Below, one piece after another: positions 20,652 to 58,352 of a stretch of DNA of 64,000 bases. Location of the stretch: contig CAWJEN010000006.1 of assembly GCA_963841915.1 (NCBI GenBank), positions 448,001 to 512,000 of the forward strand, given 5' to 3'. The notes beneath the pieces were generated by a model, which saw only the letters and a program-made list of their open reading frames with translations, was not told the origin of the DNA and searched no databases. Position 1 is the stretch's first letter. The number at the start of each line of letters is the position of its first letter. The translations under genes were made by a program, and so were the position numbers. The stretch comes from an uncultured Planctomycetota bacterium (GTDB lineage Bacteria; Planctomycetota; Phycisphaerae; Tepidisphaerales; Tepidisphaeraceae).

Positions 20652-21953
20652 GTGATTCTCGCGATCGATGTCGGCAGTTCCTCCGTCAAAGCTGCGTTGC
20701 TCGACGGCACCACCATCGTCGGCGACAATGCCTACGAGCCGTTCGTGACCACCTATCGCGACCTGTGTGTCGAGGTCGACGCCGTCGCGATCGATGAGGC
20801 CATTCGCAGAGCGGTCGCCAGGCTCGATATTGCCGCTGCGAGCAGTGTCGGCATCACGGGCATGGCACCGGCGTGGCTGGCGATGGACGAGCACGGCCGG
20901 GCGATGACGCCGATCATCACCCACCAGGATCGCCGCAGCACCGAAGTCGCCCACGCCATCGAGGAAAGGATTGGCAGGAAACGCGGATATCTCCGACTGA
21001 CCGGCAATGTTGCCACGCCCGGGGGCATCAGCGTGACGACAGCTTCCTGGGTCGGCAGCCACAGCAACATCATCGACCGCTGCTCGATGATGGGGCATCT
21101 GCCGACTTCGCTGATGAAACGTCTGACCGGCGAATGGGCGATCGATCCGAGCAACGCAGGCTTCACAGGTCTGCTCGACGTCCAGGCGATGAAGTGGTCG
21201 AAGACCGTCTGCGATGCCGCACAGTTGCCGATGAGCAAGCTGCCGCCGATCGTGGATGCGGCAAGCGTGGTCGGTCAGACCGTGGCCAACGACTTGAGCA
21301 TTCCGATCGGTCTGCCGGTATTCGGCGGCTACGTTGACGGCAGCGGGCCGTTACTACTGACCGGGGCGACGCCCGGCACGCTCATGCACTCGGCCGGTTC
21401 GACCGACGTCCTGGCGGTGTGCGTCGATCGGCCGATCCCGACGAAAGGGCTGTTGTGTCGGCCGCTAGGCTCGAAAAACCTTTGGGTACTGGCCGCCACG
21501 CAGGCGGCCGGGGCGTCGTCGATCGGGTGGATCCGCGAGATGCTCTTTGCGGACCTCGACACCGATACGTTCACCGCCGAACTGCGCGCCGCGGCGAAAA
21601 CGGAGACGAGCGTGACGTTCCGCCCGTGCCTGGCCGGTGACCGCCAGAAGATCGATCAGTCGGCGGCTGGCCTTGAGGGCCTGACGTTGGCAACGACGCG
21701 TAAGGACATTCTCGCCGCGGTCGTGCAGGGTTTGGTGGCCGACCACGTCAAGCGGTTCGACCGCCTCATGCGAGCCGCCGGTGATGTCGACTCGAGAGTC
21801 GTCACCACCGGCGGGGCGGGTGCTTTTCGAGATGTCCTTCGCGCCGCATGGCCGAATCGGCCCGACGGGCAAAGCTGGGCGTTCGAGGAGGTCGAGCAGG
21901 CGACGCTCCGCGGCCTGGGAGCGCTCAATTCAGGGGCAGCTCCCAAGGCGTGA
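20652..21953 (+). CDS. FGGY-family carbohydrate kinase
   Basis: [46 protein letters not shown]. Confidence 0.85.
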
Positions 21954-22968
21954 CCTTGACCTTCTCGAACTGGCCCGGGTTGTCGGGAGTGCCGAACTTG
22001 ACGCTCTCGCCGTGGCCATCGACGAAGCCGACATTGACGCTGCCACCCTTGGGGTTGCCGAGCGTGCCGCGAGCCTCAGAGTTGGTCGCGCCGCTGTCGT
22101 GACGATCGAGCGGAACGCGCCATGCGAGCCAGGACGTCTGCATGATGCCTGCCATCGTGCCGTCGTAGGCGATGTTGCCGCCGTTGTAGTTGTTGGAACC
22201 GAAGTTGGTCGTCCAGATGAGCAGGTCGGCGCGGTCGAGGAAACCGCCGCCTTGTTGCGGGTCGGCACGGATGGTGCCGGTGTCACCCCAGAGCAGCGTG
22301 CTGGCCGGATCACGAACCGCGGTCAGCTTGGCATTGACCGACTTGCCGAGCTGCGGGTGCCAATAGCCTGGAGGGCTCGACAGCGGCAGTCCGCCGACGA
22401 CACCGACTTCCGAGCTGCCGATGCGACTGACGCCGCCGTACGTATTGCGGTCGATCAACGAAGCAATATCGCCGTTGATGCCGTAGCTGGCCGGAACCTT
22501 GTCAAGGGCGACACCCTGCGGTGCGACGTATCCCGCGCCTTCGGCTCCGGTGGCCACGCCCGGATCACTAGGGCAAATAAAGTAATCAGGCCAGTTGTTG
22601 CGTTCGTCAAACGTCGCATCCGCCTCGCCAAGATACCGGATCATGTACGTGTACAGGTCCAGGATCTCGACGCCGTCGTCGGCGTCCATGGGGTTGTCGC
22701 GGTACTCAAAGATGTTGCGGCTGCGGTCATACTGCTCGACCACGAAGTCGCCACTGACCGGAGGCAGGTAATTCGTGTCCAGGTTGAACTGCAACGACGC
22801 GCTGCCCAGCTCGCGCAGGCTGCTCAGGCATTTGACGTTGGCCGCGCTGGCCCGGGCGCGGTTCAGCGTCGGCAGCAGGATCGAGATCAGCAGCGCGATG
22901 ATGCCGATGACGACCAGCAACTCAACGAGCGTGAAACCGCGGGTGCGTGGGGATGGGGTTGCGTTCAT
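21925..22968 (-). CDS. Prepilin-type N-terminal cleavage/methylation protein (DUF1559 / H-X9-DG type)
   Basis: [48 protein letters not shown]-terminal RH...NVGFVDGH. Confidence 0.93.
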
Positions 22969-23054
22969 GGGAGGCCTCCTCGGCCGCTTTCGGCGGGATG
23001 GGGTGGGCGGCTCAAGAGCGAGGCGCCGCGGGGAAACAGGCAAAAGGGAGTTCG

Positions 23055-26000
23055 TCAAACGGAAGCTTGTGGTTTCGAGCGGCGTCGTAGTAGACCTGCA
23101 TAGGCGAGGCCCATTGTGACGATGCCTGTCGGCTCCGGAATCGTCGTCGGCAGCAGGTAGGCGAGCGAGCCGGCACTGCCTGCAACGCCTCGCTCGAAGC
23201 CGAAATTGTTGCGAAGCAGAGCAAAGTCGAGGATCGACACGATGCCGTCGGCGTTGAAGTCGCCGCCCGACCAGCCACCGTCGGTCCCGAAGTTGGCCCG
23301 CAACGCGGCAAAGTCGAGGATGCTCACCGTGCCGTCAAGATTCGCATCGGCGTACGCCGTCTCGAAGACGTCGAAGACCATCACGTCCAGATCGCCCTTT
23401 GTCAGCACGCCGTCGGCGTTGAGGTCGAGCGTCCACGTCGCCTCACCGCCAAGCGCGTCGGCAAGGGTGTCGATGTCGAAGGCGTCCGTGTCGCCAAAGC
23501 CGTTGAGGTTGCCGCGGCGAAGCTCTGCGGCACGAGCAGCGTTAGCCGTGTTGTTGGCGCCGAAGCTGCGGTAAATCTCCTCGAGCAGGAACAGGTCCGG
23601 CGTCGTGATGCGGCCGTCACCATTAGCGTCGGCGGCTGGGTTGAACTGGTCGCCCTGGGCGTACAGCACCGCCTCGAAGCCGTAGCTCGTCCCCGTCACA
23701 TCGTCGGTGCCGAAGAAGCCGTTTGAGTTGAGATCCCCGATCCCGCGGCCGATGCCGGTGTCGAATCCGAAGCCGCCGAACCGCTGGACGTTCAAGTTAC
23801 CGGAAATTTCTTTCGTGACGACGGTGACGGCATGGTTGCCGGTCACAAGCCCGCCGAAGCCGTACTTGAAGAGGTCGCGATCGACCTGGCTGGCCTTGGC
23901 GTTGTTGCCGACGAGCGAGAGCGGGTCGGTGTTTTCGGGCAGGTTCAGGAAGACGAAGACTTCGTCAGCCGTGCCGTCGACGCTCTCGACGATGAAGTCG
24001 CGACCGCTCTGGTTGAAGGCGACGACCTCATCAATGGCCGACACCGGCTTGAGACGGTCGACGTAGATGACCTCTTTGAACGGCGAGTAGACGGCCGGGC
24101 CGCCGTCACCGCGTTGGCGGAAGGCGCGGGCTTCGATGAAGTTGACGCCTTCGGGCAGCAGCGAGGTGTCGACCGTCTGGCGGAACTGTCCATCGCCGCC
24201 GAGGGCCAGCGGGCTGCTTTTGGTCGCGAACGATTCAAAGCCGTAGGCAACGCTGCCGGGGTTAACGATGTCGACGATGCCGTTGTTGTTGACGTCGATG
24301 CCGCCGTTGATCTTGAGCAGGGCGTTGTCGCCGTCGGCCTGGAAGTCGCGTTGGCCGTCGCTGAAGACGTAGGGCGTGGTGTCGAGTTGGACGGTAAAGG
24401 TGTCGCCGGTGACGACGGTGTAGTCGGCAATGCGAGTGGTGCCGTTGGTGGCCGCCGTGGCGGTGCCGCCCTCGATCACGCCGCTGGCGCCGCCGATGCT
24501 CATCGTGCCGACAGGCGTGGGCAGGCCGTAGATGACGAAGCCGTTGTCGTGCCGATCACCGTCAGCGGCAACGTTGCGCGGGATGCGGATGGCGACCTGA
24601 CCGTTGTCTTGAACCGTGACGAAGTCGGGAATGTCGTTGAACGGGTCGACGTTGCTGTCGTTGGCGTTGCCGGTGAGCTCGACGAGTCGAGTGCCTGCAC
24701 CAAATCCGCTGTCGACGATGCGCGTGTCGTAACCGCCGTCGAGACGATTGCTGAGGCCGACGATGGCCGAGCCTTCGCGGGCGTAGACGAGGGTCTCCTT
24801 GTCGATCCAAGCCTCGCGGTAGTCGCCGCGGCCGTGCGTGTTGCGGATGCCGACGAGCGTCGTGACGGTGTCGCCGTAGAGCCCGCCGAGCGCGTCACCG
24901 CGGCCGTCTTTGGGGAAGTCTCGGTTGGTGCCGAACTGCTCGGCGTTGTGATAGACGACCCAGTTGCCCGGCCGCATCGACAGGTAGGCGTTGGCGACGT
25001 TGCCGAGGTCGGCCCCGTTGTCGTCGTGGCTGGCGTCGAAGGCGACGCCCTGGCTGCCGTCGTTGGCCAGGCCGTCGTTGGCGTCGAAGCTGGCGTTGAC
25101 GATGTTGCGCCAGTCGTTGGCGAATCCGTTGTTCGACAGGTTGCCCTTGAGCGCAAAGTGCAACGGAAAGTCGAGGGCGTCGCGGTTGCCACCGATGCGG
25201 TTGGGCTGCTGTGGGTCGATGTCCTTGCGGGTGTACTGCTGAAGCAGGCTCTTGTTGCCGTCGAGCACTTCGCCGAACGAAAAGACGTGGTCGGTGCTGC
25301 CGTCGAGGAGCTTGCGCGGGTTAGCGCCGTAGACCGCGCGGTCGAGGTACTCGAGCACCCACGGCTCCATGTGCTTGGCGGCATCGAGGCGAAAGCCGTC
25401 GAAGCCGACGTCCTGCACGTACCACTGCGCGTTACGCATGAGGTACCCGGTTGCGTTCTCGGTGACGGGCGTGCCGTCGTTGATCTCGCTGCCGTCGCCT
25501 CGGAAGTCGTAGACGCGAAAGCTCTGATTCGTCTTCGGGTCGTACAGATCGCGGAAGGGGCCGCTCTGGCTCGCGTAGAAGCGGCGGTTACTGGCGTCGG
25601 GAACGTTGGCGATCTTGCCGTTCCAGAATTGCGTCCCGGCAGGCAGGTTACGCGAGTCGCCTGCGTCGACCGGGTTGCGGATGAACTGGAAATTCGTCTC
25701 GTGGTCGATGTCGATCAGGCCCGACAGGCGGCCTTCGTTGACACCACCTGCAAAGCCGCTGTGGAAGTCGCCGTCGATGGCATTGTCGAGCGTGAGGGCA
25801 AAGCCTGCGTACCCGCCTGACGCGGCAAAGCCGGGCGTCCCGAGGTCGGCAAAGCCGTTGTGGTTCCAGACAAGGTCTGCATAGACGCGCCCGCCGAAGC
25901 GTTGCCACGTCTGGTTCATGGACCGAACGCTGCGTTCGGTGCCGTAGAGCGTCTTGTCGTTCCAGGTGCCCAAGTCGAAGCGGTCGTACTGGTCGTAGCC

Positions 26001-26216
26001 GACGCTGAAGCCGCCGGTTTCTGCCTTGCCGGGTGGCGGTACCCAGAGTCCCCCGTAGCCGGCGATGAAGGCGTCGGCGGCGCGGCTTTCGGTGTTCTGC
26101 CAGGTCGACTCGAAGACCTGCAGGATCGCCGGTGCCGACGTGTCGGCCTGTGCGAGTCCGGCAGCGGCAAAGGTCGCAGTGACGGCAGCGGTGAGAATGT
26201 GGCGGCGGTACGGCAT
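23055..26216 (-). CDS. GH13 alpha-amylase with dockerin-like repeats and PEP-CTERM anchor
   Basis: Signal peptide; [27 protein letters not shown] (nucleophile), GEVL (acid/base), [17 protein letters not shown] repeats; IPEP+TM+RRR. Confidence 0.9.
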
Positions 26217-26261
26217 GTGTCGTTCTTCCTCTGCTCAATCGGTTAACCTGCTGCTCCTTAA

Positions 26262-26295
26262 AATGCCCCGACCCGCTCTCGCGAGTCGGGGCATT
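26262..26295 (-). terminator. Stem-loop between the PEP-CTERM gene and the amylase gene
   Basis: Minus-strand AATGCCCCGAC...GTCGGGGCATT followed by further T residues. Confidence 0.65.
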
Positions 26296-26304
26296 GCGTT
26301 GAAT

Positions 26305-27549
26305 TCAAGCGCGACGGCGACGCAGCATCGCCAGTCCGCCAAGGGCGAACAGGGCGGCGGTCGTCGGCTCGGGGACGACGCTGGCGTACCAGGCGTCGAC
26401 CGTTGCAAGCTGGGCCGGCGTCAGGCTCGTGCCGAAGTTGGCGCGAAGGATGGCGAAGTCGAGGATGGAAACAAGGCCGTCTTCGTTGAAGTCGCCGGTC
26501 TCGAAGGTGCCCATGTTGCTGCCGAAGTTGGCCCGCAGGATGGCGAAGTCGAGGATGGAGACGGTGCCGTCACCATTAGCGTCGCCTGGCAGGCGGGGCG
26601 TGCCGCCGAGGTCGATGCTGATGAACTGATCACCGGCAAAGGTGCTGGCGTCGAAGAGTGGCACGCCGCCGACACCACCCGGGCCGCCGAGGTTCTCGAC
26701 GCCGCCCAGGCCGGGCAGGAACTGGTTGCTCAGGAAGTCACCGCCGCCGTTGGTGATGAACGGCAGGAGCTTGATGTCGCCGCTCATGTTGAGGGCGGTC
26801 ATCAGGAACTCGTCGCTGAGGAGGTACTCGAGGCCGGTGTCGGCCGAAAGCGGGTCGCCGAGCGCGCCGGGCGGATTGGCGGAGTCGTACCCGAAGACGC
26901 CGTCCGTGTTGGTGTTGTCAAAGGCGAAGGTGATGTCGCCGACCACGGTGCCGTCGTCAAGGGTGTAGGTGCCGGTGGTGGCCGGGCCGTTGACGGTCGC
27001 CCCGCCGACGAAGCGGTCAACGTTCGGGTCGCCGTCGTTGGGCAGCGACAGGTCGATGACGTTGAGGAAGGCCGTGCCGTCGAAGATGTTGAGCTCGAGC
27101 GAGTAGTCCGGGTTGAAGCCGGGGTCGAGGATGGAGGGGATGTTGGCGGGATCCTGCATGCCCATCGAGCCGTCGCGGTCGGTGCCGAAGTCGTCGGTGC
27201 GTGCGCCGCCGACGCTGCCGAACGTGCCGAAGCCGTTGGGGCCGGTCGATGCGATCGCACCGCCGGGCTTGGAGTCGACGAAGAGGACGATACCGTTGCC
27301 GCCGCCTTCGAGGTTGCCGGTGAGGCCGAGGTAGAGGCCGGTGCCGGCCTGGTAGCTGGCGTAGGCGGCGTTGAGTTCGTTGGCGTTGTCACCGAAGCCG
27401 GTGGGCGTGTCCTGGACGGCGACGGCCTGGCCGTACTCGGCTGAGGTGATCGAGCCGTCGACAACGATTTGTGCCGAGGCGTCGGCGGCGAGGCCCGCCA
27501 CGGCCGCGACCGCGGCAAGGGTAACGGCGGTGTGCATCTTCTGGGTCAT
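26305..27549 (-). CDS. Non-catalytic PEP-CTERM surface protein with dockerin-like domain
   Basis: Signal peptide (ASA|Q); acidic G/D/T-rich body starting [19 protein letters not shown] and GDFNEDGLVSILDF; VPEP+TM+RRRR. Confidence 0.88.
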   Translation of the reverse strand: MTQKMHTAVTLAAVAAVAGLAADASAQIVVDGSITSAEYGQAVAVQDTPTGFGDNANELNAAYASYQAGTGLYLGLTGNLEGGGNGIVLFVDSKPGGAIASTGPNGFGTFGSVGGARTDDFGTDRDGSMGMQDPANIPSILDPGFNPDYSLELNIFDGTAFLNVIDLSLPNDGDPNVDRFVGGATVNGPATTGTYTLDDGTVVGDITFAFDNTNTDGVFGYDSANPPGALGDPLSADTGLEYLLSDEFLMTALNMSGDIKLLPFITNGGGDFLSNQFLPGLGGVENLGGPGGVGGVPLFDASTFAGDQFISIDLGGTPRLPGDANGDGTVSILDFAILRANFGSNMGTFETGDFNEDGLVSILDFAILRANFGTSLTPAQLATVDAWYASVVPEPTTAALFALGGLAMLRRRRA

Positions 27550-27661
27550 GGAAAGGTCCTCCGGAGGGGGGTTCTTGGTGAAGGAGTCGGTGGCAGACGC
27601 TGCGTCGACCCATCGGGTCAGGTTAATTGTTTAACCGGCAGGACGAACCACCGCCGCGGTA

Positions 27662-27689
27662 AGGCTAGCACATCGACCGCCACCGTCAA
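27662..27689 (-). promoter_or_regulatory. Putative sigma-70 promoter of the PEP-CTERM/amylase/pilin operon
   Basis: TTGACG-16 nt-TAGCCT with TG preceding the -10 element. Confidence 0.45.
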
Positions 27690-27772
27690 CCACAATTCGC
27701 CCGAACTTTGTGCATCACGTGCTGCAGCAGCCCGCAGTGCCTATGCAAACAGCATATTTGGCGTTGCTTGGC

Positions 27773-27801
27773 GTGACGAAACCGGTCGGACGGGGTAGAC
27801 T
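27773..27801 (+). promoter_or_regulatory. Putative sigma-70 promoter of the LacI gene
   Basis: GTGACG-17 nt-TAGACT. Confidence 0.4.
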
Positions 27802-27849
27802 GGTTCAACTCCGGTGTTTAACAGGGCCGCCGCGGTGAACAAGAGACGC

Positions 27850-29016
27850 ATGTCGAGATACGCCAATCATCATCCCAAGCTGTTGGTCCCGGCCGCGGAT
27901 GCGGAGACGGGCGACGCGTCGGCCGCGCGTCGACCGATCCAGCGGACCGTCGCCGCCGGTGAACCTGCAGGTCGCGGTGGTGGCGGGTCGCAGCCGAACC
28001 TCCGCGATGTCGCCAAAGAAGCAGGCGTTTCCGTGGCGACCGTCAGTCTCGTCCTCAACAAGTCGACCCGCATCTCCAAGCCGACGGCTGACAAGGTGCG
28101 GGGCGTCATGGACCGTCTGGGGTACCGGCCCAACCGCTTGGCGCAGTCGCTCAGTGGCCGGTACGTCAAGGTGCTAGCGGCCGTCCTGCCCGACCTGCGG
28201 AATGCCTTTGCCGATGCATACTTCGGCCAGTTGCTTGCGGGCCTGACCGATGCCGCCCACGAACGGGGTTTCAAGATTCTGCTGGAGCAGGCCAAGCCAA
28301 CCTGGATCAAAAGTGGCGGGCCATTGGAGCTGTTCGAGCGCCGATTCGTCGACGGCGTCCTGCTGCTGGGTCACACAGATTACAGCACGTACGTCGCCGA
28401 CCTTTGCCGCGAAGGCCGGCCGGCACTGGCGATCGACAACCGGCTCGAGTTCGAAGGTGCCGGCTGCGTCGACTTTGTCAGCAGCGACTACCAGAAGGGT
28501 GCTCAGCAGGCGATGAATTACCTGGCCCAACTCGGCCACCGCGAGATCGGGCTTATCGAGGCGGCACCGCAAATCGCCACCGTTCGCGACAAGAAATACG
28601 CGTGGGAAACCAAGCTCCGCGAGCTCGGGGTAGAGCCGGTCGAGACACGCGTCGGCGACGGCGAATTCACCGAGATCGGCGGCAGCGAGGCGTGCGAACG
28701 CGTCATGAAGCACCACCCCGAGACCACCGCCATCCTGGCGATGAGCGACAAGATGGCGATCGGTGCGACGAGCTGGCTTCGTCGCAACGGCCACCGCGTG
28801 CCCGAAGATGTCAGCGTCGTCGGCTTCGACGATCTGCCGCACGCGGCGTTCCTGGAGCCGTCGCTGACGACCGTGCACCTGCCGCTCTACGACGTGGGCC
28901 GTCGGGCGTGCATCCGCCTGATCGAACGCGTCGAGGGCAAGCGTGACAGCGTGCAAGAGGTGCTCGATACGCACCTGGTGATCCGCAACTCGACGAGCAT
29001 CGTGCGACGCTCTTGA
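27850..29016 (+). CDS. LacI-family transcriptional regulator
   Basis: LRDVAKEAGVSVATVSLVLN HTH; YRPNRLAQSL; VPEDVSVVGFDD; PSLTTV. Confidence 0.95.
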   Translation: MSRYANHHPKLLVPAADAETGDASAARRPIQRTVAAGEPAGRGGGGSQPNLRDVAKEAGVSVATVSLVLNKSTRISKPTADKVRGVMDRLGYRPNRLAQSLSGRYVKVLAAVLPDLRNAFADAYFGQLLAGLTDAAHERGFKILLEQAKPTWIKSGGPLELFERRFVDGVLLLGHTDYSTYVADLCREGRPALAIDNRLEFEGAGCVDFVSSDYQKGAQQAMNYLAQLGHREIGLIEAAPQIATVRDKKYAWETKLRELGVEPVETRVGDGEFTEIGGSEACERVMKHHPETTAILAMSDKMAIGATSWLRRNGHRVPEDVSVVGFDDLPHAAFLEPSLTTVHLPLYDVGRRACIRLIERVEGKRDSVQEVLDTHLVIRNSTSIVRRS

Positions 29017-29042
29017 TGCGCACTCTTTGCGTTGAGGACCTG

Positions 29043-29056
29043 ACACACACACACAC
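29043..29056 (+). repeat. (AC)7 microsatellite
   Basis: ACACACACACACAC in the 86-bp gap between lacI and the GH13 gene. Confidence 0.8.
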
Positions 29057-29102
29057 CGACCTGCGGCTCGTCGAGCCAAGGCGTCTCTGACGGAGGACCC
29101 TT

Positions 29103-31640
29103 ATGAACTTCAAGACTCACATCATCCTCGCCGCCGCCGTCGCTGCAACGGTCGGCGTTACGTTGCCGGTCGTGCCGGCGTTCGGCGAAGCAACAGCCGA
29201 GAAAACCGACAACGGTTACCAGGTCGTTTTCAGGCTCGACGCCAGCGGCTGGGACGACAAGCCCAGCAGCGTGAACGTTGCCGGCGACTTCAACGGCTGG
29301 AACAGCGGCGCCGACGCGATGACGGACCTCAACAGCGACAACATCTGGGAGTTGACGATGCCGATGTCGCCGGGGCAGTATGGGTACAAGTTCGTGATCG
29401 ACGGCGACCGGTGGATGACCGACCCGACGGACGACGCCGAGCTACGCGAGGGTGACAACTACGGCGGCGAGAACAGCGGCGTGATCGTGGGGCCAGACAT
29501 CCGTAAGGCTCCGCCGCCGGAGGAGGGGACAATCAATGATGAATTCGTTCGGCACGAGCCGGTTTCGGATGTCGTCCCGATCGACAACGATCGAATCCGC
29601 GTGCGCGTGAGTGCGTTGGAAGGCGACGTGAAAGAAGCTGTCGCAGGCGTCTATGTGGGTGAAGGAAACGAGGGCGCGCACGCCTTCCCGATGCGGAAGG
29701 TCGCTACCGCTGGCGGGTATGACGTCTTCGAAGCCGTCGTGATGGCCGATGGTCGGGACGAGATCCGTTACGCCATCTCAGCAAGCGATGGCAGCGCTCG
29801 CGTCATCATCGATGAAGACGGTGTGCGCGACCGTTCGGGTCAAGGCACTGGCGATGTCAATCCGTTTGTCGTTGCAGCCCCGAGCTTCGACGTCCCCGAG
29901 TGGGCCGCCGACGCCGTCTGGTACCAGATCTTCCCCGAGCGCTTCCGCAACGGCGACACGTCCAACGACCCCGGCCAGTTCGACTACGAGCTGCTCGTCG
30001 GCTGGACCACCAACTGGTGGGACGTGCTCGAAGGCGAAACGCCGCCCGACAGCATGAGCGACAACTTCTACAACGGCACCGGCGACGTCTGGGACCGGCG
30101 CTACGGCGGCGACCTGCAGGGCGTCCGTGAGAAGCTGCCGTATCTGAAGGAACTCGGCATCAACGCCATCTACTTCAACCCGATCTTTGAGGGCGAGTCG
30201 ATGCACAAGTACGACACCGCCGACTTCCGGCATATCGATGACAACTTTGGCGTGCTCGACGAGAGCGGCGTCTATCCGCCGAACTTCGAGGGTGAGACGG
30301 CCGACCCCGACACCTGGGTCTGGTCGCCCAGCGACAAGGTCTTCCTCGACTTCATCGAAGAAGCGCACAGCCAAGGCTTCAAAGTCGTCATCGACGGCGT
30401 CTTCAACCACGTCGGCACCGCTCACCCGTTCTTCCAGGACGTGCTCGAGAACGGCCAAGACAGCGAGTTTGCCGACTGGTTCGAGATCACCGACTGGGGC
30501 GACGGCACGCCGGAGAGCATTCAGTACCTCGCATGGGACAAGCCCAACGGTGCGTTGCCAGTCTTCAAGAAGGACGCCAAACTCGGCCTCGCCGAGGGAC
30601 CACGGCAGCACATCTTCGACATCACGAAGCGCTGGCTCGACCCCGACGGCGACCCGACGACGCGCGACGGCATCGACGGCTGGCGTCTCGATGTGCCCGG
30701 TGACATTCCGCACCCGTTCTGGGTCGAGTGGCGCAAGGTCGTCAAGGAAGCGAATCCCGACGCCTACATCACCGGCGAGATCTGGCAGTGGGCCGACGCC
30801 TGGCTCAAGGGCGACCAATTTGATGCTGTCATGAACTACCAGTTCGCGATGGCGACGCAGGACTTCCTGATCGACCAGTCGACGGCCAACACGCCGAGCG
30901 AATTCCTGGGCCGACTCGAAGAGCTGTACACGCGATACCCGGTGCCGGTCACGTACGCGATGCAGAACCTGATGAGTTCGCACGACACGGACCGCCTCGC
31001 GAGCATGTTCGTCAACCCCGATCGGCCATATGACGGAGCCAACCGGCCACAGGACAATGCCGTCAGCTTCAGCGGGCCGATGTACAGCGAGCGCAAGCCC
31101 GACGAGATCGAGCGTGAGAAAATGCGGCAACTCGTCTTCTTTCAGCACAGTTTCGTCGGTGCACCGATGACCTACTACGGCGACGAGGCCGGCATGTGGG
31201 GCCCGGACGATCCGAGCAACCGCATGCCGCTGCCGTGGCCCGATCAGGGTGAGTACCAGGGCAGCAGCGACGGCTTCGACGAGGCGACTTTCGACATGTA
31301 CCGCCACGCGATTGCGATGCGGAACACGCTGCCCGTGCTGCGGACCGGCGACTTCGAGCCGGTCATGGCCGACGACGCGACCGGCATCGTCGCGTTCAAG
31401 CGAACAGGCGAGGACGGCAGTGTCGCATACGTCGTGCTGAACAAAGGCGACGCGGCCGAGGCGACGCTCGAGCTGGTGGCGGGCGAATACGTGGACGTGT
31501 CTGACCCGGCCAACGTGGAACTGGTCGACGGCGAGGACGGCCGCCCGCGGCTGAAGGTCATGGGCGAGTCGATCCGCGCCGATGGCCGGTTGACGCTCAA
31601 CCTACCCGCCAACGGTGTGGCCGTGCTCGTTCATCGGTAA
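29103..31640 (+). CDS. Secreted GH13 neopullulanase/cyclomaltodextrinase-like enzyme with N-terminal CBM48-like domain
   Basis: Signal peptide; VAGDFNGW...YKFVIDG (CBM48/AMPK-like); WYQIFPERFRNGD, YGGDLQG, DGVFNH, DGWRLDV, GEIW, SSHDT, YYGDEAG. Confidence 0.93.
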   Translation: MNFKTHIILAAAVAATVGVTLPVVPAFGEATAEKTDNGYQVVFRLDASGWDDKPSSVNVAGDFNGWNSGADAMTDLNSDNIWELTMPMSPGQYGYKFVIDGDRWMTDPTDDAELREGDNYGGENSGVIVGPDIRKAPPPEEGTINDEFVRHEPVSDVVPIDNDRIRVRVSALEGDVKEAVAGVYVGEGNEGAHAFPMRKVATAGGYDVFEAVVMADGRDEIRYAISASDGSARVIIDEDGVRDRSGQGTGDVNPFVVAAPSFDVPEWAADAVWYQIFPERFRNGDTSNDPGQFDYELLVGWTTNWWDVLEGETPPDSMSDNFYNGTGDVWDRRYGGDLQGVREKLPYLKELGINAIYFNPIFEGESMHKYDTADFRHIDDNFGVLDESGVYPPNFEGETADPDTWVWSPSDKVFLDFIEEAHSQGFKVVIDGVFNHVGTAHPFFQDVLENGQDSEFADWFEITDWGDGTPESIQYLAWDKPNGALPVFKKDAKLGLAEGPRQHIFDITKRWLDPDGDPTTRDGIDGWRLDVPGDIPHPFWVEWRKVVKEANPDAYITGEIWQWADAWLKGDQFDAVMNYQFAMATQDFLIDQSTANTPSEFLGRLEELYTRYPVPVTYAMQNLMSSHDTDRLASMFVNPDRPYDGANRPQDNAVSFSGPMYSERKPDEIEREKMRQLVFFQHSFVGAPMTYYGDEAGMWGPDDPSNRMPLPWPDQGEYQGSSDGFDEATFDMYRHAIAMRNTLPVLRTGDFEPVMADDATGIVAFKRTGEDGSVAYVVLNKGDAAEATLELVAGEYVDVSDPANVELVDGEDGRPRLKVMGESIRADGRLTLNLPANGVAVLVHR

Positions 31641-33743: not shown

Positions 33744-34223
33744 CTAGGCCGATGCCGAAGCGCGGCGTCGGTCAAAAGCGGCGCGGGCGGCAGGCTCAAC
33801 GTGGTCGAAGTCATGACTTGACGACTTGCCGTAGCCCTTGTCGTCGTAGTGCGTCCGCAGGGCGTCGGCGTCGTAGTCGTGGTCCGAGTCGGCGGCGTTG
33901 TATCCGAGGCGGTACGCCGGCTCGTAATCCTCGTACTTGTCGTCAGAGGTGGCGTAGGGCTGGTTGCCGTGCTCGGCGCGCCAGTGGGCGTCCTCGGTCG
34001 GGTCGACCGCCTCACCAATGCCGTGACCGACGAGGCCACCGACAACAGCGCCGGCTACGCCTCCGATGACGGCACCGACGGGTCCGCCCAGGGCACCGAT
34101 GGCTGCGCCGGTGGCGGCGCCGCTGGCCGAGCCGATGCCGGTGCCCGCAGGGTGGCTGCCCGGATTGCCGGTGATGAGGTCAGGGTTCGTGTCTGCTTCG
34201 TGGTCTTTGTTGGTCGTGCTCAT
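33744..34223 (-). CDS. Glycine-zipper protein (general-stress type)
   Basis: HPAGTGIGSASGAATGAAIG...GGLVGHG; EDAHWR; YEDYEPAYRLGY; ARAAFDR. Confidence 0.8.
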   Translation of the reverse strand: MSTTNKDHEADTNPDLITGNPGSHPAGTGIGSASGAATGAAIGALGGPVGAVIGGVAGAVVGGLVGHGIGEAVDPTEDAHWRAEHGNQPYATSDDKYEDYEPAYRLGYNAADSDHDYDADALRTHYDDKGYGKSSSHDFDHVEPAARAAFDRRRASASA

Positions 34224-34259
34224 GGTGCGTTGGGTTGGTGGTGCTTTGACGAATTACAT

Positions 34260-34275
34260 TGCAACGGTCGTGCCA
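34260..34275 (-). promoter_or_regulatory. Sigma-54 promoter of the glycine-zipper gene
   Basis: TGGCACGACCGTTGCA matches the consensus TGGCACG-N4-TTGCW, 36 bp upstream of the ATG. Confidence 0.75.
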
Positions 34276-34329
34276 ACTGTGATGAACGCGCAGGTGCGCC
34301 GACAGATTGCGGCCTCCGTATGGTCGCCC

Positions 34330-35706
34330 GTGGCAAACGATGTCGAGCTGTCGGATCAACAGATGATCGATCTGACGGCGCGGGAGGCATACCGGTACTT
34401 CACCGATGAAGGACTACACGCGGGCGGGCTTGTGCGGGACTCGGCACGGCCGGGTTCGCCCTGCAGCGTCGCGGCGGCCGGTTTTGCCGCGGCAGCGCAC
34501 GTCGCGGCGGAGATCATGGGCATCGTCGACCGTCAGACGGCGTTGCGGTTGTGTCTCGAGATCGCCAGGACCTTTGCTGCGCTACCGACGCAGACGACAG
34601 TCGCCGAAGCCAGTGACGCGGCGGGGCATCGCGGGCTGTTTTTCCACTTCATCGAGGCAGACGGCGAACGACGCGGCAAGCGGGCGTGGAAAAGCGAACT
34701 CAGCACGATCGACACGGCCCTGCTCGTCGCCGGCCTGCTCACCGCGGCGGCCCACTTTGATCGGGACGACGAGGACGAGCAAGCCCTCCGAGACGCGTGC
34801 AACAAGGTTTGCGATGCCGTCGACTGGACGTTCTGTCTTCGCCCTGACGGCCTGCTTTCGCACGGCTGGCGACCCGAAGCGATCAAGCGGTCGCGGGCGC
34901 ATCACGGCCGCGACGGCTTTATCGTCCACGGCTGGGACGGATACGACGAAGGCTTGTTGCTCTATCTGTTGGCCCTCGGCTCGCCGACGCACGCCATCAA
35001 ACCTGAGAGCTACAACGCCTGGTGCTCGACGTACGCCCGCGACTGGAAGACGGTCGAGGGCATCGAGCACCTGCACTGTCCGCCTTTGTTCACGCACCAG
35101 TTTCCGCACAGCTTTGCCGACCTGGGTGGCGTCCGCGACGCGTTTTGTCGGGATCGCGGCCTCGACTACAACGAGAACGCCCGCCGCGGCACGCTCGCGC
35201 AGATCGAGTACGCCAAGCGGAACCCGCTCGGTTTTCCCGGGTACGGCGGATTCACCTGGGGCCTATCGGCGAGCAACGGCCCGGGCATCGACCACAAGCG
35301 ACAACTCGGGCGAAACGGGGAGAAGATGCGATTCTACCCGTATGTCGAGCGAGGCTTGTCGCCACCCGATGGCGTGGTCGATGACGGCACGCTGGCCCCC
35401 TGGGCGGCGGCGGCGTCACTGCCGTTCGCGCCGAACGAGGTCGTGCAAGCGATCCGCGGCCACCGGGCGGCGACGCTGTGTCGCCCCGACTGGGAAGGGT
35501 TCATGGGCAGTTACAATCTCGCCTACATCGACGAGAATTGCCCGCACGGCTGGGTCGACGAGTACGACCTGGCGATCGAGCAGGCACCTATCGTCATGAT
35601 GGCGGCCAATCACGTGCACGACGGCATCTGGCAGGCAACGCGCAAGTGCGGCGTCTTTCAACGTGGCCTGCGGGCGGCCGACTTCCGAGGCGGATGGCTT
35701 GATTGA
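34330..35706 (+). CDS. Glucoamylase-family/GH144-like glycoside hydrolase (possible beta-1,2-glucanase); start uncertain
   Basis: SVAAAGF, HRGLFFHF, ELSTIDTALLVAG, HGWRPE, WDGYDEGLLLY, PLFTHQF, WGLSASNGP, DDGTLAP, LAIEQAP. Confidence 0.8.
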   Translation: MANDVELSDQQMIDLTAREAYRYFTDEGLHAGGLVRDSARPGSPCSVAAAGFAAAAHVAAEIMGIVDRQTALRLCLEIARTFAALPTQTTVAEASDAAGHRGLFFHFIEADGERRGKRAWKSELSTIDTALLVAGLLTAAAHFDRDDEDEQALRDACNKVCDAVDWTFCLRPDGLLSHGWRPEAIKRSRAHHGRDGFIVHGWDGYDEGLLLYLLALGSPTHAIKPESYNAWCSTYARDWKTVEGIEHLHCPPLFTHQFPHSFADLGGVRDAFCRDRGLDYNENARRGTLAQIEYAKRNPLGFPGYGGFTWGLSASNGPGIDHKRQLGRNGEKMRFYPYVERGLSPPDGVVDDGTLAPWAAAASLPFAPNEVVQAIRGHRAATLCRPDWEGFMGSYNLAYIDENCPHGWVDEYDLAIEQAPIVMMAANHVHDGIWQATRKCGVFQRGLRAADFRGGWLD

Positions 35707-53689: not shown

Positions 53690-56600
53690 CTACACGGTCT
53701 GGCCGAAGTTGGCCCGTAGCAGGGCAAAGTCGAGAATGCTGACCGTGTCGTCGTAGTTGAAGTCACCCTCGGACCACAGCGAGCCGCTGCCGAACCCACC
53801 GCGCAGGCGGGCGAAGTCGAGGATGCTGACGGTGCCGTCGAGGTTGGCATCGCCGTATCGTGTGTAGCGGACGAGGGTGGCGGTGGCGTCGACGGGTCGA
53901 CCGGCGAACGAGCCGGCGCCACCGAGCAGGTCGGCCGAGTCGCCGTACCCGAGGGCGAACTGGTTGGCATTGCCGAACGACGTGTTGATGCCGGCCCCGT
54001 TCCACGCGCCGCCGTTGTAACCGGAATCGATGAGGGCGGCGATGGTGCCGAGCGGACTGACGCCGCCGAAGTCGACGATGAGCGCGTTGTCGGCGATGTC
54101 GAGGAACCCGCCTGCGTTGGTGTTGATCGACAGGAAGTCGGTCTCCAGCACGATCGGGGTGATGCTGTCGAAGGTCGCCCGGCCGCCGTCGTCGAGGACG
54201 AACTGCGACAGGGTTTGCGAGGTGAACATGCGGATCGCCGTGTCGGCGTAGATCTGGTCGAGACCGTCCTCGCCGTCCACAAATACCGGCGGGGCGAAGA
54301 TGTTCTTGCCGTTGATGTCGATGTTGTCGTTGCCGCCGCCAGCCTTGACGGAGATGGCACCGTTGAACGTCGAGTTGACGTCGATGGTGTTGTTGCCGAG
54401 GTTGGCCTGGAGGTCGAGCTCTTCGAGTCCGCTGAACGTCCTGCTGTACGTCGACGTGTTCTTAACGAGGGCTGTGGACGTCAGCGTGTAGGTGTCGTTA
54501 CCTGTGTCGAGTCCGTCGAGGAAGATCAGGTCATCCGTCCCGGCGTTGCCGTTGACGACGATGTCGCCGCTGAGGGAATCGATGCGCTGGGCACTTGCGG
54601 CGACGAGAATGTCGTCGTTGCCGCTGCCGGCGTTGATGACGAGGTCGACCGGGAAGATGATCGGCGGTCCGCCGATGATGAACTGTGAGCCACCCAGGCC
54701 GTTGACGTTGATCGTGTCGTTGCTCGTTCCGGCATTGACCGTCAACGCCTCGATTCGCGGCGGGCTGATGAGGCCGGAAATCCAGTCCACGCTTCCTTCC
54801 CAGCCGCTTCGGTCGAAGCCGCCTGAACCAATGTCGTAGGTTCGAGTGCCTGTCTCGCTCGCGTCGTTGATGTTGACCCGGTCGAAGCCTGCATTGCCAT
54901 CGACAAACACATCAGCGATGACCGGGTTGATGTCCCCGTTGCCGATGTTAATGGTGTCGTTGCCGTCACCGGCGGCGACGGTCAGATCGTTCTGGAGCGT
55001 AAAGCCGAAGCCCAGGACGCCCATCCCGTTGACGTTGATCGTGTTGGACCCGTCGTTGGCGTAGAGGGTCGTTTCTGCGATGGCGATGCTCGTGTAAACG
55101 TCTCCGCCGAGCGAGCTCTTGGTGAAGGTTTGTGCGCCACCGAACGTGCCACCGTCGAAGGTGTAGCTGTCGTTGAGCGTGTCGCCGCGGTCGTCGAGGA
55201 TGACGACGTTGGTGCCACCGTTGCCGTTAAGAACAAGGTTGGCCGAAACATTGGTATCGAGATCGCCGAGATTCACGGCACCGACGCGGAACGTATCGTC
55301 GCCGTTGTTGCCCTCGATCAGGACGTCGGCAACCGTGGCCGCGAACCGCTCGAGGTTGATCACGTTGCTGCCGGTGTTCGCCTCGAGTTCGACGTCCTCA
55401 ATGTTGCTGTACGTTGTGGTGCTGGTTTCGCTCGATTTGGAGAAAAGGGCCAGGTCGAACGTGTAACTGTCGTCAGCGGTGTCGCTTGCATCTTCGATGA
55501 CGAGCCGGTCGATGCCGAGGCCGCCGTTGACGATGACGTCGCCGCTGGTGTTGTTGTCGTAGTCGCCGCCACCGACAAAGACGGTGTCGTTGCCGTCATT
55601 ACCGTTGACAGTGAACGCGCCTGTGACGGTGCTCGACACCCGGTCGAGGTTGACCGCGTTGTTACCAGGGTTGGCGTCGAGCACGATGTTCTGCATGCTC
55701 GAGAAGGTGAACGTGTCGGAGAAGCTTGTTTTGGTCAGCGTGGTGAAGTCGAGCGTGTAAGTGTCGTTACCGGCATCGGTCGAGTCGTCGATGTTGAGCG
55801 TGTCGTCGCCGCCGTCACCGTTGAAGATGACGTTGGCACGGATGTCGGCATCAAGATCACCGTCGGCGACGTTGAAGATGTCGTTGCCGTTGTTGCCCTC
55901 GATGCGGAGTGGCAGGGTGCTGAACAAATCGTTGACGTTAAAGGTGTCATCGTTCTGCGAGGCGTCGATCACAACCTCCTCGGCGTCATTGCCGACAGTG
56001 ATAATGTCTGAGCCTTTGATAAAGTCGTTGCCGTCGATGGTCCAGGTGTCGGCACCGAGTCCGTCGTTGAAGTCTTCGATGTCGACAACGTCGGTGCCTG
56101 CTCCGGTGTTGACGACGACGTTGCTGGCGAGGTTGGTATCAACGTCACCGCCACCGATGCGGACGATGTCGTCGCCGTCGCCGGTCTCGATGCGCAGCGT
56201 GATCCCGCTCGGCAGTGAGTTGACGTTGACGGTGTCGTTCCCGCCGCGGGCGAAGATGATGACTTCGCTGGAGATGTCGCCGACGGATCGTGTGAAGGAG
56301 CCGTTACCGCTGGAGGCGATGGTGAGTTCGAGCCGCTGCCGCTGACGGTGAAGGTGTTGGCTGCCTTGGGTGCCGCTGACGTTCAGGTCGCCCTGACGAT
56401 CTTTGACCCAGCCCAGGCCGCGGTGTAGTGGGCGCGGACGCCGTTGATGTCGTCGGTGAGCAGGGTGCGGTCGTCGGGCCTTGTCATGCGGTTGCCGATG
56501 CAGGCGTCCATGATGGCCGGCTGCGGCGTCGGGCAGACGCCACCGACGACGTTACCGTTGGGGTGCCGAAGGCCGAGCGCGTGGCCGATCTCGTGGACGG

Positions 56601-57290
56601 CGACTTCGAGATAGTCGACACCGCTGCTGCCGGGCGAGCCGTCGCCCCAGCTGTTGCCGTTGTCGAAGTGCAAGTCACCGGCGATGCCGCCGGAGACGAG
56701 GTTGACCGGGAAGATCGGATTGGTCGGGAAAATAGGCGTGGGCCAAGACGTTGGCACCCGACTGCACCGTCGATGAAGTGGTGGCCGAAGCGCAGCTGCG
56801 GGTTGCCGCCAGCGCCGTAGTCGGGGTCGTCGATGCTGGACGCTCGGGCCGCTGTCGATCTCTTCGGTGAAGGTCAGGTCGCTGACTGCCGTCCAGATGA
56901 GCATGGCCTCTTCGGTCAGGTTGCGAAGCTCGGTGGTGATCAGGCCCGACGAGGCCGCCGTTGAGCAGATTGCTGTAGCTGTACGGACGTCGGGCGAATT
57001 CCACTTCGTCGTAAGATCGTGACGACAGCGTCGTTGCCGACGAGATTCTGCTCGTCGATCGGCACATGTTCGGCTCGCCATCGTCGACGTGGCCCATGTC
57101 GTCGTTGTAGCCGTAGAGGGCGTGCACCAGCTCGTCATCGCCGTGGTCGTGATGTGTGGTCGGTTCGGCAAGGTCGCCAGGCGGCGTGGGCCAGCAGGCG
57201 ACGGGCCTCGAGCGGCTCGATGGCCAACACCGGGATGCGGCGGCTTGCGCGAGGAGGAGGCGCGGGGAAGAGAGGCGATGCGACGGCCAT
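53690..57290 (-). pseudogene. Large secreted LEPRxLL / matrixin (M10) / RTX-like repeat / dockerin protein, multiply frameshifted (pseudogene or assembly error)
   Basis: ATG 57290 gives MAVAS...IEPLEARRLLA. Fragments in alternating frames include ANVLAHAYFP, GDLHFD and HEIGHALGLRH. A continuous frame from ~56340 to 53690 carries GNDTINV-type repeats and a C-terminal [14 protein letters not shown] dockerin. Confidence 0.8.
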
Positions 57291-57624
57291 GGCGGACGGG
57301 CGGGGGCAGAAAACATGTTCTCTCCGGTGGGATGAGGGCTGGGATCACGAGTTGCCCGAACCGCCCAATTACCGATCCCTACACCTTACGCTAACGTCGA
57401 CGAACAACTGCCGCGGGCAGGTTGGAGGAACAGCAGCGAACTCCGGCAACGGTAACAAGCCGGCGGAAGCAGCTCAAGCACATTTAGCATTAAGATGCGG
57501 AACAAGGAGTCGACAAGGCATGCCGTTCGGCGACGGCTCCTTCGCGTGTGAGGCGGGCTGGGAGGCACGACAAAGCCCGATGATCCAGCCGGACCAGCGG
57601 GCAGAGCTTTGCCGTGACAGGCCT

Positions 57625-58266
57625 CTACATCGGCTCGTGCTCGATCGTGCGGTCGTAGACCTCGAGCAGCTTGCTCTTGTCGAAGATCATCTCCTGACGC
57701 GTCAGGCCGACCAGGTCGTAGACGCTCGTCAGCTCGATGGCGTCGACGGGGCAGGCCTCCTCGCACATGCCGCAGTAGATGCAGCGAAGCTCGTCGATGT
57801 CGAACTTGATCGGGTACTTCTCGCGGTCTTCCCACGGGCTTTCGCCGGCCTCGATGTGGATGCAGTTGGCCGGGCAGGCGGTGGAGCACATAAAGCAGGC
57901 GACGCACTTGACGCGACCTTCTTCGTCTTTATTGAGCCGGTGCACGCCGCGGTAGGTGCTGCGGAAGATGCCACCGTCTTCGACGGCCTTGTCCTCGCGT
58001 CTCTCCTCGGGGTACTGGATCACGCGGTGCTCGTCCTTGACGACGACGTTGAACAGGTGCCGCATCGTCGTGCCAAGACCCTTGAAGACCTGCGGCAGGT
58101 AGAACTGGTCGCTGATTGTCAACTTCGGCTCGGTCATCGTCACGTACGTGCCGTCGTCGTCCTTGATGCGGGAGACGGGCCGCTCCATGATCTTGGGCGG
58201 CGTTTGGGCGACGGGGCCGGTGGGAACGGCGACCTTGGCTTTGTCGTGCGTCTGGGTCTCGGGCAT
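57625..58266 (-). CDS. nuoI: NADH-quinone oxidoreductase subunit I
   Basis: QYPEE; RGVHRL; CVACFMCSTACP and CIYCGMCEEACPVDAI (two 4Fe-4S motifs). Confidence 0.95.
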   Translation of the reverse strand: MPETQTHDKAKVAVPTGPVAQTPPKIMERPVSRIKDDDGTYVTMTEPKLTISDQFYLPQVFKGLGTTMRHLFNVVVKDEHRVIQYPEERREDKAVEDGGIFRSTYRGVHRLNKDEEGRVKCVACFMCSTACPANCIHIEAGESPWEDREKYPIKFDIDELRCIYCGMCEEACPVDAIELTSVYDLVGLTRQEMIFDKSKLLEVYDRTIEHEPM

Positions 58267-58352
58267 CTTGCGGCACGATAGGGGCCAACTGACAAGACGG
58301 CGGCCACGTCACCGTGGCCGCCGTCGGTTTGTGTGAAACACGCCTTTCAGTT

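Follow-up and report, generated by a model that had tools for sequence, protein, structure and literature searches.

Among the known systems most like the present locus are the starch utilisation system of Bacteroides (SusA-G and SusR) and polysaccharide utilisation loci (PULs). The locus described here lies in a window of 64,000 nucleotides (the whole stretch of DNA that was analysed, to which all positions refer). It shares with the Bacteroides system a local regulator, a predicted surface GH13 amylase, putative surface starch-binding proteins and a probably periplasmic neopullulanase-like enzyme. It differs in that SusC/SusD and a TonB receptor were not found in the genome, the surface proteins are of the PEP-CTERM type rather than lipoproteins, and the regulator belongs to the LacI family instead of being SusR. 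In addition, a DUF1559-like pilin is a constant extra gene and many relatives have an ABC importer.

The alginate locus of Verruconatronum alginivorum is likewise a polysaccharide cluster with a pseudopilin, which comes from a paralogous family of 67 members, and over-expression of a pseudopilin was seen on the substrate (PMC13274419). However, this organism has a TonB system, the authors read the pilin as a part of type II export, and the portions of their account considered here contain no clade, operator or profile analysis linking the pilin to the substrate (PMC13274419). The Sulfolobus bindosome is alike in that its proteins bear signal peptides resembling those of type IV pilins, depend on a pilus-type assembly system and serve, together with ABC transporters, the uptake of sugars, but it is archaeal, functions without an outer membrane and has a classical ABC binding protein as its head (PMC3047682), whereas the head of the present pilin has no solved relative and its glucan binding is a proposal. 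Within the same phylum, dextran binds pili-like fibres of Planctopirus and Gemmata (PMC5394234), and alpha-glucan on such fibres is a proposed uptake route (PMC5394234; reviewed in PMC12673574). These are two members of the class Planctomycetia, whereas the present pilin clade was found, among the genomes searched, only in the class Phycisphaerae. In the PVC bacterium Akkermansia, pilin-like genes of MUL2 are needed for glycan acquisition (PMC13174399; bioRxiv 10.64898/2025.12.30.696933); as described there, MUL2 is one general pilus locus, unlike the substrate-specific paralogue inside a sugar regulon proposed here. The review calls the players in planctomycete polysaccharide uptake unknown (PMC12673574).

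Layout of the locus and its predicted products

The five genes listed in Table 1 are a conserved alpha-glucan locus of Phycisphaerae, whose arrangement is kept across the class and thus far beyond chance. The coordinates and orientations given for the five open reading frames in the earlier note on this DNA were all borne out, as was the division into a left arm (PEP-CTERM/dockerin-like protein, GH13 amylase and prepilin, in this order) and a right arm (LacI, followed by a signal-peptide-bearing CBM48/N-domain/GH13 enzyme). The pilin most likely starts at the ATG at 22968, which is preceded by a GGAGG site, the alternative TTG at 23058 being disfavoured; the ATG at 27850 is the most likely start of LacI. 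The locus brings together, for one glycan, a regulator, a surface glycosidase, a binding protein and a periplasmic glycosidase, with cellular locations predicted from signals. A convergent FGGY kinase gene (20652-21953) was left out because it has no match in related loci. Scans for sigma-70 promoters and terminators gave results at or below shuffle level, and an Rfam search of the window returned two tRNAs only.

Table 1. Features of the alpha-glucan locus, with positions in the window
Feature	Position	Strand	Remarks
DUF1559-like prepilin, 347 aa	21925..22968	-	head typical of one clade; proposed as a minor pilin for alpha-glucan
Predicted cell-surface GH13 alpha-amylase, 1053 aa	23055..26216	-	signal peptide, triad, dockerin-like EF-hand repeats, PEP-CTERM-like tail
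Weak third LacI-type operator (predicted)	26233..26248	.	PWM score 14.0
Non-catalytic PEP-CTERM/dockerin-like surface protein, 414 aa	26305..27549	-	PF07589, PF00404, TIGR02595
LacI-type operator GGTTAATTGTTTAACC, ahead of left arm (predicted)	27621..27636	.	score 20.9
LacI-type operator GGTAGACTGGTTCAAC, ahead of lacI and neopullulanase gene (predicted)	27794..27809	.	score 19.3
LacI-family repressor	27850..29016	+	PF00356, PF13377; frame open from 27814
Neopullulanase-like GH13 enzyme with CBM48 and N-domain	29103..31640	+	Pfam; TVA II E 3.5e-89

The amylase carries the Asp/Glu/Asp triad of GH13 alpha-amylases in the conserved regions (D278/E316/D398, unchanged in all 32 orthologues aligned) and matches Pyrococcus-type amylase structures (E 1.7e-15) as well as NCBIfam PRK09441 (E 3.5e-33, below the cut-off). 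Judging by its sequence, it is probably active and located at the cell surface. Its designation as a PEP-CTERM protein holds for the tail (IPEP, a hydrophobic stretch and RRR), which is visible in the sequence, but the thresholds of the PEP-CTERM HMMs are not reached. The right-arm enzyme combines an N-domain, a catalytic domain whose best solved relative is neopullulanase/TVA II and the triad D530/E559/D628, which places it in the neopullulanase group; its match to PF02903 is weak. The Sec-type signal peptide without a lipobox at its N-terminus makes a periplasmic location likely, and a neopullulanase-like activity is predicted.

The non-catalytic protein of the left arm was modelled with AF2 (pLDDT 93.4) as a CBM74/CBM9-like beta-sandwich with extra loops. 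Its best fold match is the CBM74 of Sas6 (Z 10.3, rmsd 4.9, 227 residues aligned), followed by CBM9 (Z 7.8), and the top four rows of a Foldseek search are all Sas6 (E 7.8e-3). Sas6 of Ruminococcus bromii likewise belongs to a starch system as a surface protein without catalytic function, and its W373 is invariant in CBM74 (bioRxiv 10.1101/2022.11.20.514607). Nevertheless, the identity to Sas6 is 12%, residues 26-318 contain no Trp, and the domain profile retrieved no Sas6 from the solved sequences at E<=10, its matches being at chance level (E>=0.22). Of 87 relatives, however, 79% have a Trp at position 121. The ESM Atlas placed the domain in an unnamed cluster, with Glucodextran_C (0.85) as a lead only. 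From the modelled fold, we consider the protein likely to bind starch. Its PEP-CTERM tail matches the HMM, and the genome holds three exosortase matches, as expected for an exosortase substrate. Both this protein and the amylase match PF00404, and the dockerin-like repeat is common to 24 PEP-CTERM proteins; a cohesin scaffoldin, the partner of dockerins in a cellulosome or amylosome, was not found in the genome (0 PF00963 matches).

The pilin clade and its predicted LacI operators

The prepilin has the features of a type IV pilin: a cleavage site between G and F in the motif GFTLVE, E5 and a hydrophobic alpha-1 helix with P22. It matches PF07963 and TIGR02532, and its first 60 residues give profile matches to solved pilins. 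Further motifs are CPSD, RH (289-290) and NxxFxDGH (NVGFVDGH, 312-319), the spacer between the latter two being longer than in H-X9-DG. The earlier note had called it a DUF1559 protein; the prepilin part of that description stands, while the score against DUF1559 (PF07596) is 20.4-20.8 bits against a gathering cut-off of 23.3, so that 'DUF1559-like' is a fair label. Among 33 clade members, 18 match PF07596 at E<=0.001 (best 1.4e-10). TIGR04294, which we take to be the model of the H-X9-DG prepilins, was absent from the NCBIfam matches of the pilin; JGI annotation names relatives of the pilin H-X9-DG prepilins. The AF2 model (pLDDT 88.6) has a 52-residue N-terminal helix (residues 14-65). Fold searches with the full model gave weak matches to pilin helices only (best Z 4.2) and hence barely probed the head, which makes no case for a new fold. 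In the ESM Atlas, the head falls into an unnamed cluster, with DUF1559 (0.90) as a lead only. Conserved clade-specific polar and aromatic residues are D167, D245, D248, W252, T254, N255, W280 and R284.

Within its own genome, the pilin head matches one locus among some 31 paralogues. In a quick tree, in which 28 of 43 branches are open, the pilin and 12 pilins of starch loci formed a 13-row clade (SH-aLRT 93) with the 31 paralogues outside. The occurrence of this clade (threshold E<=1e-30) was profiled over 300 genomes of the class, which are mutually related MAGs, so that the following counts overstate independence: the clade pilin was found in 50 genomes, 49 of which also encode the amylase family, and it lies within 5 kb of the amylase in 45 of these 49 and within 12 kb in 46. 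The amylase family is present in 76 of the 300 genomes, 27 of them without a clade pilin. In one bacterial family (f1), 21 of 24 amylase-positive genomes have the clade pilin, as against 1 of 19 amylase-negative ones; in another (f5), it is found in 22 of 22 amylase-positive genomes and, as one weak fragment, among 22 amylase-negative ones.

Loci with both the amylase and LacI contain a pilin gene in 23 of 26 cases (20 of the compared loci were hand-picked rather than random), and in six of the 23 the pilin belongs to a different DUF1559 clade within the same regulon. In the remaining three, the contig breaks off (G002) or the pilin gene is displaced (two cases). Conversely, none of seven amylases without LacI in the fetched stretch adjoins a clade pilin, although one of them (G010) is followed about 2 kb downstream by another pilin gene. 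In G062, the clade pilin is kept together with LacI and an X25-domain PEP-CTERM gene, and the amylase was not found. Thus, the pilin tracks the regulon, not one single enzyme. The gene-neighbourhood check proposed in the earlier note therefore found the pilin conserved beside GH13 genes, and the refutation that a lack of conservation would have meant did not occur.

The repressor has the HTH and sugar-binding domains of LacI/GalR proteins and a palindromic putative operator near its gene; its orthologues in related loci are 42-78% identical to it, compared with 24-30% for paralogues in its own genome. With an operator matrix trained on 15 other loci, the sites ahead of the left and right arms have the highest and second-highest scores of the genome, respectively. 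The weak third site sits 17 bp before the amylase start and would control amylase and pilin; a site just ahead of the amylase gene is also present in orthologous loci (e.g. L036, L037, L038, L039, L046, L053 and L054). Since the 26 sites above 14 bits in the genome equal the level of column-permuted matrices (13-57), only the top, positionally conserved sites are to be trusted. Of 29 pilin genes checked, 16 have an operator scoring at least 16 in the 350 bp upstream, two of these 16 being in the training set; the background in the own genome, at 250 bp, is 5 of 2977 genes. Each of the three displaced pilins has retained an operator (G034, 16.2; G266, 22.3; G061, 20.8), even that of G266, 346 kb away from the amylase. 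The locus is likely switched by its own LacI repressor. Assignment to alpha-glucan utilisation is supported. The clade pilin co-occurs with the amylase family and has a LacI operator of its own or downstream of one.

We regard as quite improbable the reading in which the pilin has another starch-linked role (contact sensing, or an adjustment of pilus adhesion or of motility on starch) or is no more than a co-inherited passenger. The family has no known function, and two of the 68 paralogues of Planctopirus are essential (PMC10632474), which would suit such a role; yet the loci share no conserved sensor partner. As for a passenger, the operators retained by displaced genes contradict it, as do the different pilin clades that fill the same regulon.

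Import, export and the role of the pilin

The locus, described previously as transporter-less, indeed contains no transporter gene, but the term fails for the locus type: 10 of 26 orthologous loci encode an SBP-permease fusion ABC importer. These are inner-membrane importers with their own SBP domain, and the pilin is therefore no substitute for inner-membrane import; the outer-membrane step alone remains. An orthologue of the importer was not found in the four genomes of this genus tested (G000, G001, G003 and G004), so that generic carriers would serve; G029 has one elsewhere (54%). No distant co-regulated importer was seen among the 40 best operator matches in the genome. The absence of a SusC-type or TonB receptor extends to the whole genome (93.8% complete), which has no matches to PF00593 or PF07715, with positive controls, and no LamB or OprB. 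A TonB barrel is absent from 10 of 14 pilin-positive relatives and lies on other contigs in the remaining four. The genome encodes a retractile type IV pilus machinery, with PilB/GspE-, PilC-, PilM-, PilQ- and PilD-like genes and three PilT/PilU ATPases over the cut-off.

We propose, with a probability of about 0.5, that in this conserved Phycisphaerae starch locus, likely switched by LacI, the pilin is a minor subunit of a retractile type IV filament and binds alpha-glucan there, so that it would take the place of SusC/SusD at the outer membrane. Maltooligosaccharides would release LacI from the three operators. The CBM74-like protein would hold starch at the surface, where the amylase, with its catalytic residues in place, would cut it. 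The pilin, processed by PilD and built into a type IVa filament, may catch the fragments, and retraction may carry them to or through the secretin, after which the periplasmic neopullulanase would trim them. In many relatives, the SBP-permease ABC importer encoded in the same locus would move the products into the cytoplasm.

Unspecific porins could admit small products of the surface amylase, in which case adhesion or export would be left as the role of the pilin. It could be a cargo-selecting pseudopilin of a type II secretion/type IV machine that exports or displays the PEP-CTERM amylase and binding proteins, with sugars entering by unspecific porins. The genome has GspE/GspF-like genes, three secretins and three exosortases, its pilin genes adjoin PEP-CTERM genes in 13 of 34 cases against a background of 161 of 2848 (5.7%), and the close linkage of 45 of 49 clade pilins to the amylase suits this reading too. 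The PEP-CTERM gene that remains upstream of the displaced or amylase-less pilins of G061 and G062 fits export equally well, and type II export is how the one induced pseudopilin of a published PUL was interpreted in V. alginivorum (PMC13274419). We nevertheless think this, the main rival, rather unlikely: 98 PEP-CTERM genes face some 31 pilins, the PEP-CTERM cargo changes from locus to locus (CBM74-like, PEP-B, X25, one to three amylases) although the pilin clade stays the same, the seven amylases outside the regulon lack an adjoining clade pilin, and G062 retains pilin and LacI where the amylase was not found. A complex prediction for amylase residues 26-700 and pilin residues 40-347 (score 0.00) weighs neither way.

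The chances are slimmer for a solute-binding protein in the manner of the bindosome: although processed as a pilin, it would stay on the inner membrane or on a short periplasmic pseudopilus, bind maltodextrin there and pass it to the neopullulanase or the ABC importer. Sulfolobus sugar-binding proteins do use class III signal peptides and type IV-like assembly (PMC3047682), Tuwongella proteins combining N_methyl and SBP_bac_10 were recovered in both detergent fractions (PMC8567305), and ABC importers are present in those 10 loci. Against this, the importers have their own SBP domain, this genus, in which none of the 4 genomes tested yielded an importer orthologue, has retained the pilin, and the outer-membrane step would stay unexplained.

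Returning to the glucan-binding filament subunit, we tentatively extend the proposal, as a doubtful generalisation, to DUF1559-type pilins as interchangeable substrate-specific receptors of a retractile type IV pilus. Oligosaccharides would be pulled through the secretin into the periplasm, in a TonB-independent, ATP-driven import across the outer membrane of PVC bacteria; this clade would be the starch receptor and also the molecular basis of planctomycete fibre-mediated glycan uptake.

How polysaccharides pass the outer membrane of planctomycetes and their relatives is an open question (PMC12673574), and DUF1559 pilins are among the largest function-less families of these bacteria. In the present locus, a single pilin clade is tied to a single, simple substrate (starch), to a predicted repressor with its operator and to partner enzymes, which brings both questions within reach of binding and knockout experiments. 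Should the pilin prove to be a receptor, the paralogues might each indicate a glycan usable by a PVC genome, like SusD in Bacteroidota.

Genes and enzymes of the locus

All five ORFs described in the earlier note were present (see the table). The genome that carries them (G000) is 3.63 Mb in size and 93.8% complete. The closest amylases in named records come from Tepidisphaerales/Tepidisphaeraceae MAGs (63–77% identity), and the catalytic residues D278, E316 and D398 are kept in 32 of the 32 aligned orthologues. The right-arm enzyme is nearest to TVA II and neopullulanases (E 3.5e-89); by its sequence, the N-terminus is of the Sec type and lacks a lipobox. The pilin gene most likely starts with the ATG at 22968, which follows a GGAGG and lies 87 bp past the amylase stop. 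Within the related loci, the neighbouring genes belong to alpha-glucan metabolism, encoding GH77, phosphorylase, GH15, GH31, pullulanase, CBM20 esterases and X25/CBM53 PEP-CTERM proteins.

Genes of the alpha-glucan locus in window coordinates
Feature	Position	Strand	Basis
Pilin	21925–22968	-	Pfam/NCBIfam: N_methyl and sub-threshold DUF1559 match
GH13 amylase	23055–26216	-	Pfam/NCBIfam: GH13 match and dockerin-like repeats
Surface protein (predicted)	26305–27549	-	Pfam/NCBIfam: dockerin-like repeats and PEP-CTERM
LacI	27814–29016 (open frame)	+	Pfam/NCBIfam
Right-arm enzyme	29103–31640	+	Pfam/NCBIfam: CBM48/GH13

The domain of the predicted surface protein was modelled at pLDDT 93.4. Compared with 48,161 chains, the fold came closest to the CBM74 of Sas6, a module that binds starch (Z 10.3, rmsd 4.9, 227 aligned); CBM9 (Z 7.8) and the glucodextranase C-terminal domain (Z 7.3) came next. 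The top four Foldseek rows were all Sas6, at an E-value (7.8e-3) that is not significant alone. Fold and context suggest that the domain likely binds starch. Membership of CBM74 itself was rejected, as there was no profile match and the Trp invariant in that family (excerpt of bioRxiv 10.1101/2022.11.20.514607) is absent.

Some related loci carry two or three tandem amylase paralogues with a single pilin (L040/L041 in G032, L049 in G036, L078 in G086); in G036, each of both amylase copies is broken into two frames. In the window, a PF10091 'putative glucoamylase' gene (34066–35706) lies 2.4 kb past the locus, has no operator and falls outside the conserved unit. At 53690–57348, a matrixin-domain ORF and a 760-aa ORF with terminal dockerin-like repeats share one strand and a slightly lower GC content; they are possibly a single broken large surface protein.

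Co-occurrence of the pilin clade with the amylase

In this genome 40 ORFs carry a prepilin motif, some 31 being DUF1559-type, and PEP-CTERM genes number about 100, so that the membership of the pilin in the locus was open to real doubt. The shared N-terminal helix was stripped from the query and the head alone was searched. It matched one place in its own genome and 14 of 60 relatives, all 14 within the 18 that carry the amylase. Genome G006 contributes to denominators alone. A 16-row head profile, searched against 300 genomes of the class Phycisphaerae, matched 50 at E ≤ 1e-30, and the amylase family was found in 76. All but one of these 50 genomes carry the amylase family (49/50; within 5 kb in 45 and within 12 kb in 46), 27 genomes have the amylase without the clade pilin, one has the reverse and 223 have neither. 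Loosening the threshold to E ≤ 1e-8 added five weak pilin matches, in amylase-negative genomes.

The association holds inside two families of the class and cannot be attributed to kinship alone. The clade pilin is found in 21 of 24 amylase-positive versus 1 of 19 amylase-negative genomes of family f1, and in 22 of 22 amylase-positive genomes of family f5 versus one weak fragment in 22 amylase-negative ones. A quick tree of 46 heads, with 28 of its 43 branches left open, placed the pilin of the window in one group with 12 pilins from starch loci (SH-aLRT 93), and none of 31 paralogues fell inside it. The clade comprises 128 clusters in a 50%-identity library (E ≤ 1e-30), and 300 genomes from across the phylum yielded a single match to it, from the same class. 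Broken pilin genes occur as well: the clade pilin of G027 (L054:12642–13611) is split into prepilin part and head by a frameshift or assembly error, and two DUF1559-type genes of the own genome (C5:72554–73529 and C6:1529363–1530309) are broken into N-terminal and head ORFs.

Gene maps were drawn from 41 fetched wide stretches, 20 of them hand-picked exceptions and examples, analysed together with stretch L002; 26 contained both the amylase and the LacI orthologue. A pilin gene was present in 23 of these 26 loci, belonging in six cases (families f4 and f23) to another DUF1559 clade; three of these six were scored on Pfam, all above the cut-off. The remaining three comprise a contig break in G002, where the clade pilin opens another contig, and displaced pilins in G034 and G266. 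Seven further amylases had no LacI within the stretch that was fetched; none of them had a clade pilin beside it, and one had a different pilin gene 2 kb downstream. Genome G062 retains the pilin, LacI, the operators and an X25-domain PEP-CTERM gene, and no amylase was found in it.

Predicted LacI operators

Motif sampling of the divergent intergenic regions yielded a LacI-type palindrome, to which the repressor would bind; the genes are likewise predicted to be inducible. With a matrix derived from 15 other loci, the two best scores genome-wide fell at 27621–27636 (20.9) and 27794–27809 (19.3); a weak site at 26233 (14.0) has counterparts in orthologous loci. Checking the upstream 350 bp of 29 pilin genes located an operator of at least 16 bits for 16 of them (two from the training set), against a background of 5 among 2977 genes of the own genome, taken at 250 bp. 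Of the 13 pilin genes without one, 12 are directly downstream of the amylase or of the amylase and one PEP-CTERM gene. The three displaced pilins each have an operator: G034 (16.2), G266 (22.3), where 346 kb separates pilin and amylase, and G061 (20.8), where the pilin adjoins GH77 and GH31 genes. The third-best site of the own genome (C6:909821, 18.8) precedes a PEP-CTERM gene (C6:908979–909836; L059:8980–9837) whose relatives sit within the starch locus in several other genomes, and this gene is therefore likely a displaced regulon member.

Transport, pilus machinery and the role of the pilin

The locus had been called transporter-less, which holds only for the window; an SBP-permease fusion, a second permease or both are, however, present in 10 of 26 orthologous loci, and several stretches end too early to be scored. 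ABC importers of about 800–860 aa, with the solute-binding domain fused ahead of the permease, lie in orthologous loci at L046:1340–3931, L049:2509–5085 and L061:14726–17134. An SBP-permease orthologue lies away from the locus in G029 and was not found in G000, G001, G003 or G004. Searches for TonB barrel, plug, LamB and OprB gave no match in the own genome, with positive controls. TonB barrels matched in 24 of 60 relatives; among the 14 pilin-positive ones, none was found in 10 and the other four had matches on different contigs. A Pfam scan of 62 selected ORFs from the loci showed no TonB receptor or porin. Judged by the absence of detectable genes, the outer-membrane importer is the consistently missing component.

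Genes for a retractile pilus are present: the genome encodes three PilT/PilU ATPases above cut-off, PilB/GspE-, PilC/GspF-, PilM- and PilD-like proteins and three secretins, as well as three exosortases. The pilin retains G|F, E5 and P22 and has a predicted N-terminal helix of 52 residues. A PilT/PilU ATPase gene is followed immediately by a gene of the exosortase family (C6:866302–869437, L084), a possible link of PEP-CTERM sorting to the pilus motor. In the window, a Tad/TadG-like gene (58353–59684) is flanked by a NuoH-like gene of unusual length on one side and a 4Fe-4S NuoI-like gene on the other (57625–61541).

The protein locations are predictions, as is every role proposed for the pilin. 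Acting as a minor pilin, it would catch alpha-glucan, a reading to which we assign a probability of roughly one half. This is favoured because the gene goes with the regulon and not with a particular cargo, because different pilin clades occupy one slot in the regulon, and because the head has clade-specific conserved Asp, Asn, Thr, Arg and aromatic residues. True import through a secretin, as opposed to surface capture, is the bolder part of this reading and appears doubtful. The pilin might instead export or display PEP-CTERM proteins: PEP-CTERM genes neighbour pilin genes genome-wide (13/34 versus 161/2848), and one accompanies even the amylase-less pilin of G062. We consider this the main rival, at a clearly lower probability. 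A periplasmic binder resembling the bindosome (compare the excerpt of PMC3047682) seems improbable, and other roles still more so. Other clusters of the genome combine a regulator, PEP-CTERM and DUF1559-type pilin genes and ABC permeases (e.g. C6:1623687–1629031 and C6:1707434–1716925).

In the openly licensed literature (CC-licensed PMC and bioRxiv) we found no paper linking a DUF1559 clade with a substrate or with an operator; such a link could exist in subscription papers or supplements. Excerpts describe a pseudopilin within an alginate cluster, taken as export (PMC13274419), dextran on pili-like fibres (PMC5394234), fractionated N_methyl+SBP_bac_10 proteins (PMC8567305) and planctomycete CAZyme clusters without functional characterization (PMC11131199); that of PMC12673574 calls the players unknown. 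The comparison also took in parts of the texts on MUL2 (PMC13174399; bioRxiv 10.64898/2025.12.30.696933) and of PMC11685898, PMC6461901, PMC4807772, PMC2754498 and PMC10632474. Real, conserved and non-trivial, this is a variant type of polysaccharide utilisation locus: it lacks the outer-membrane importer and has a substrate-linked pilin as its constant partner.
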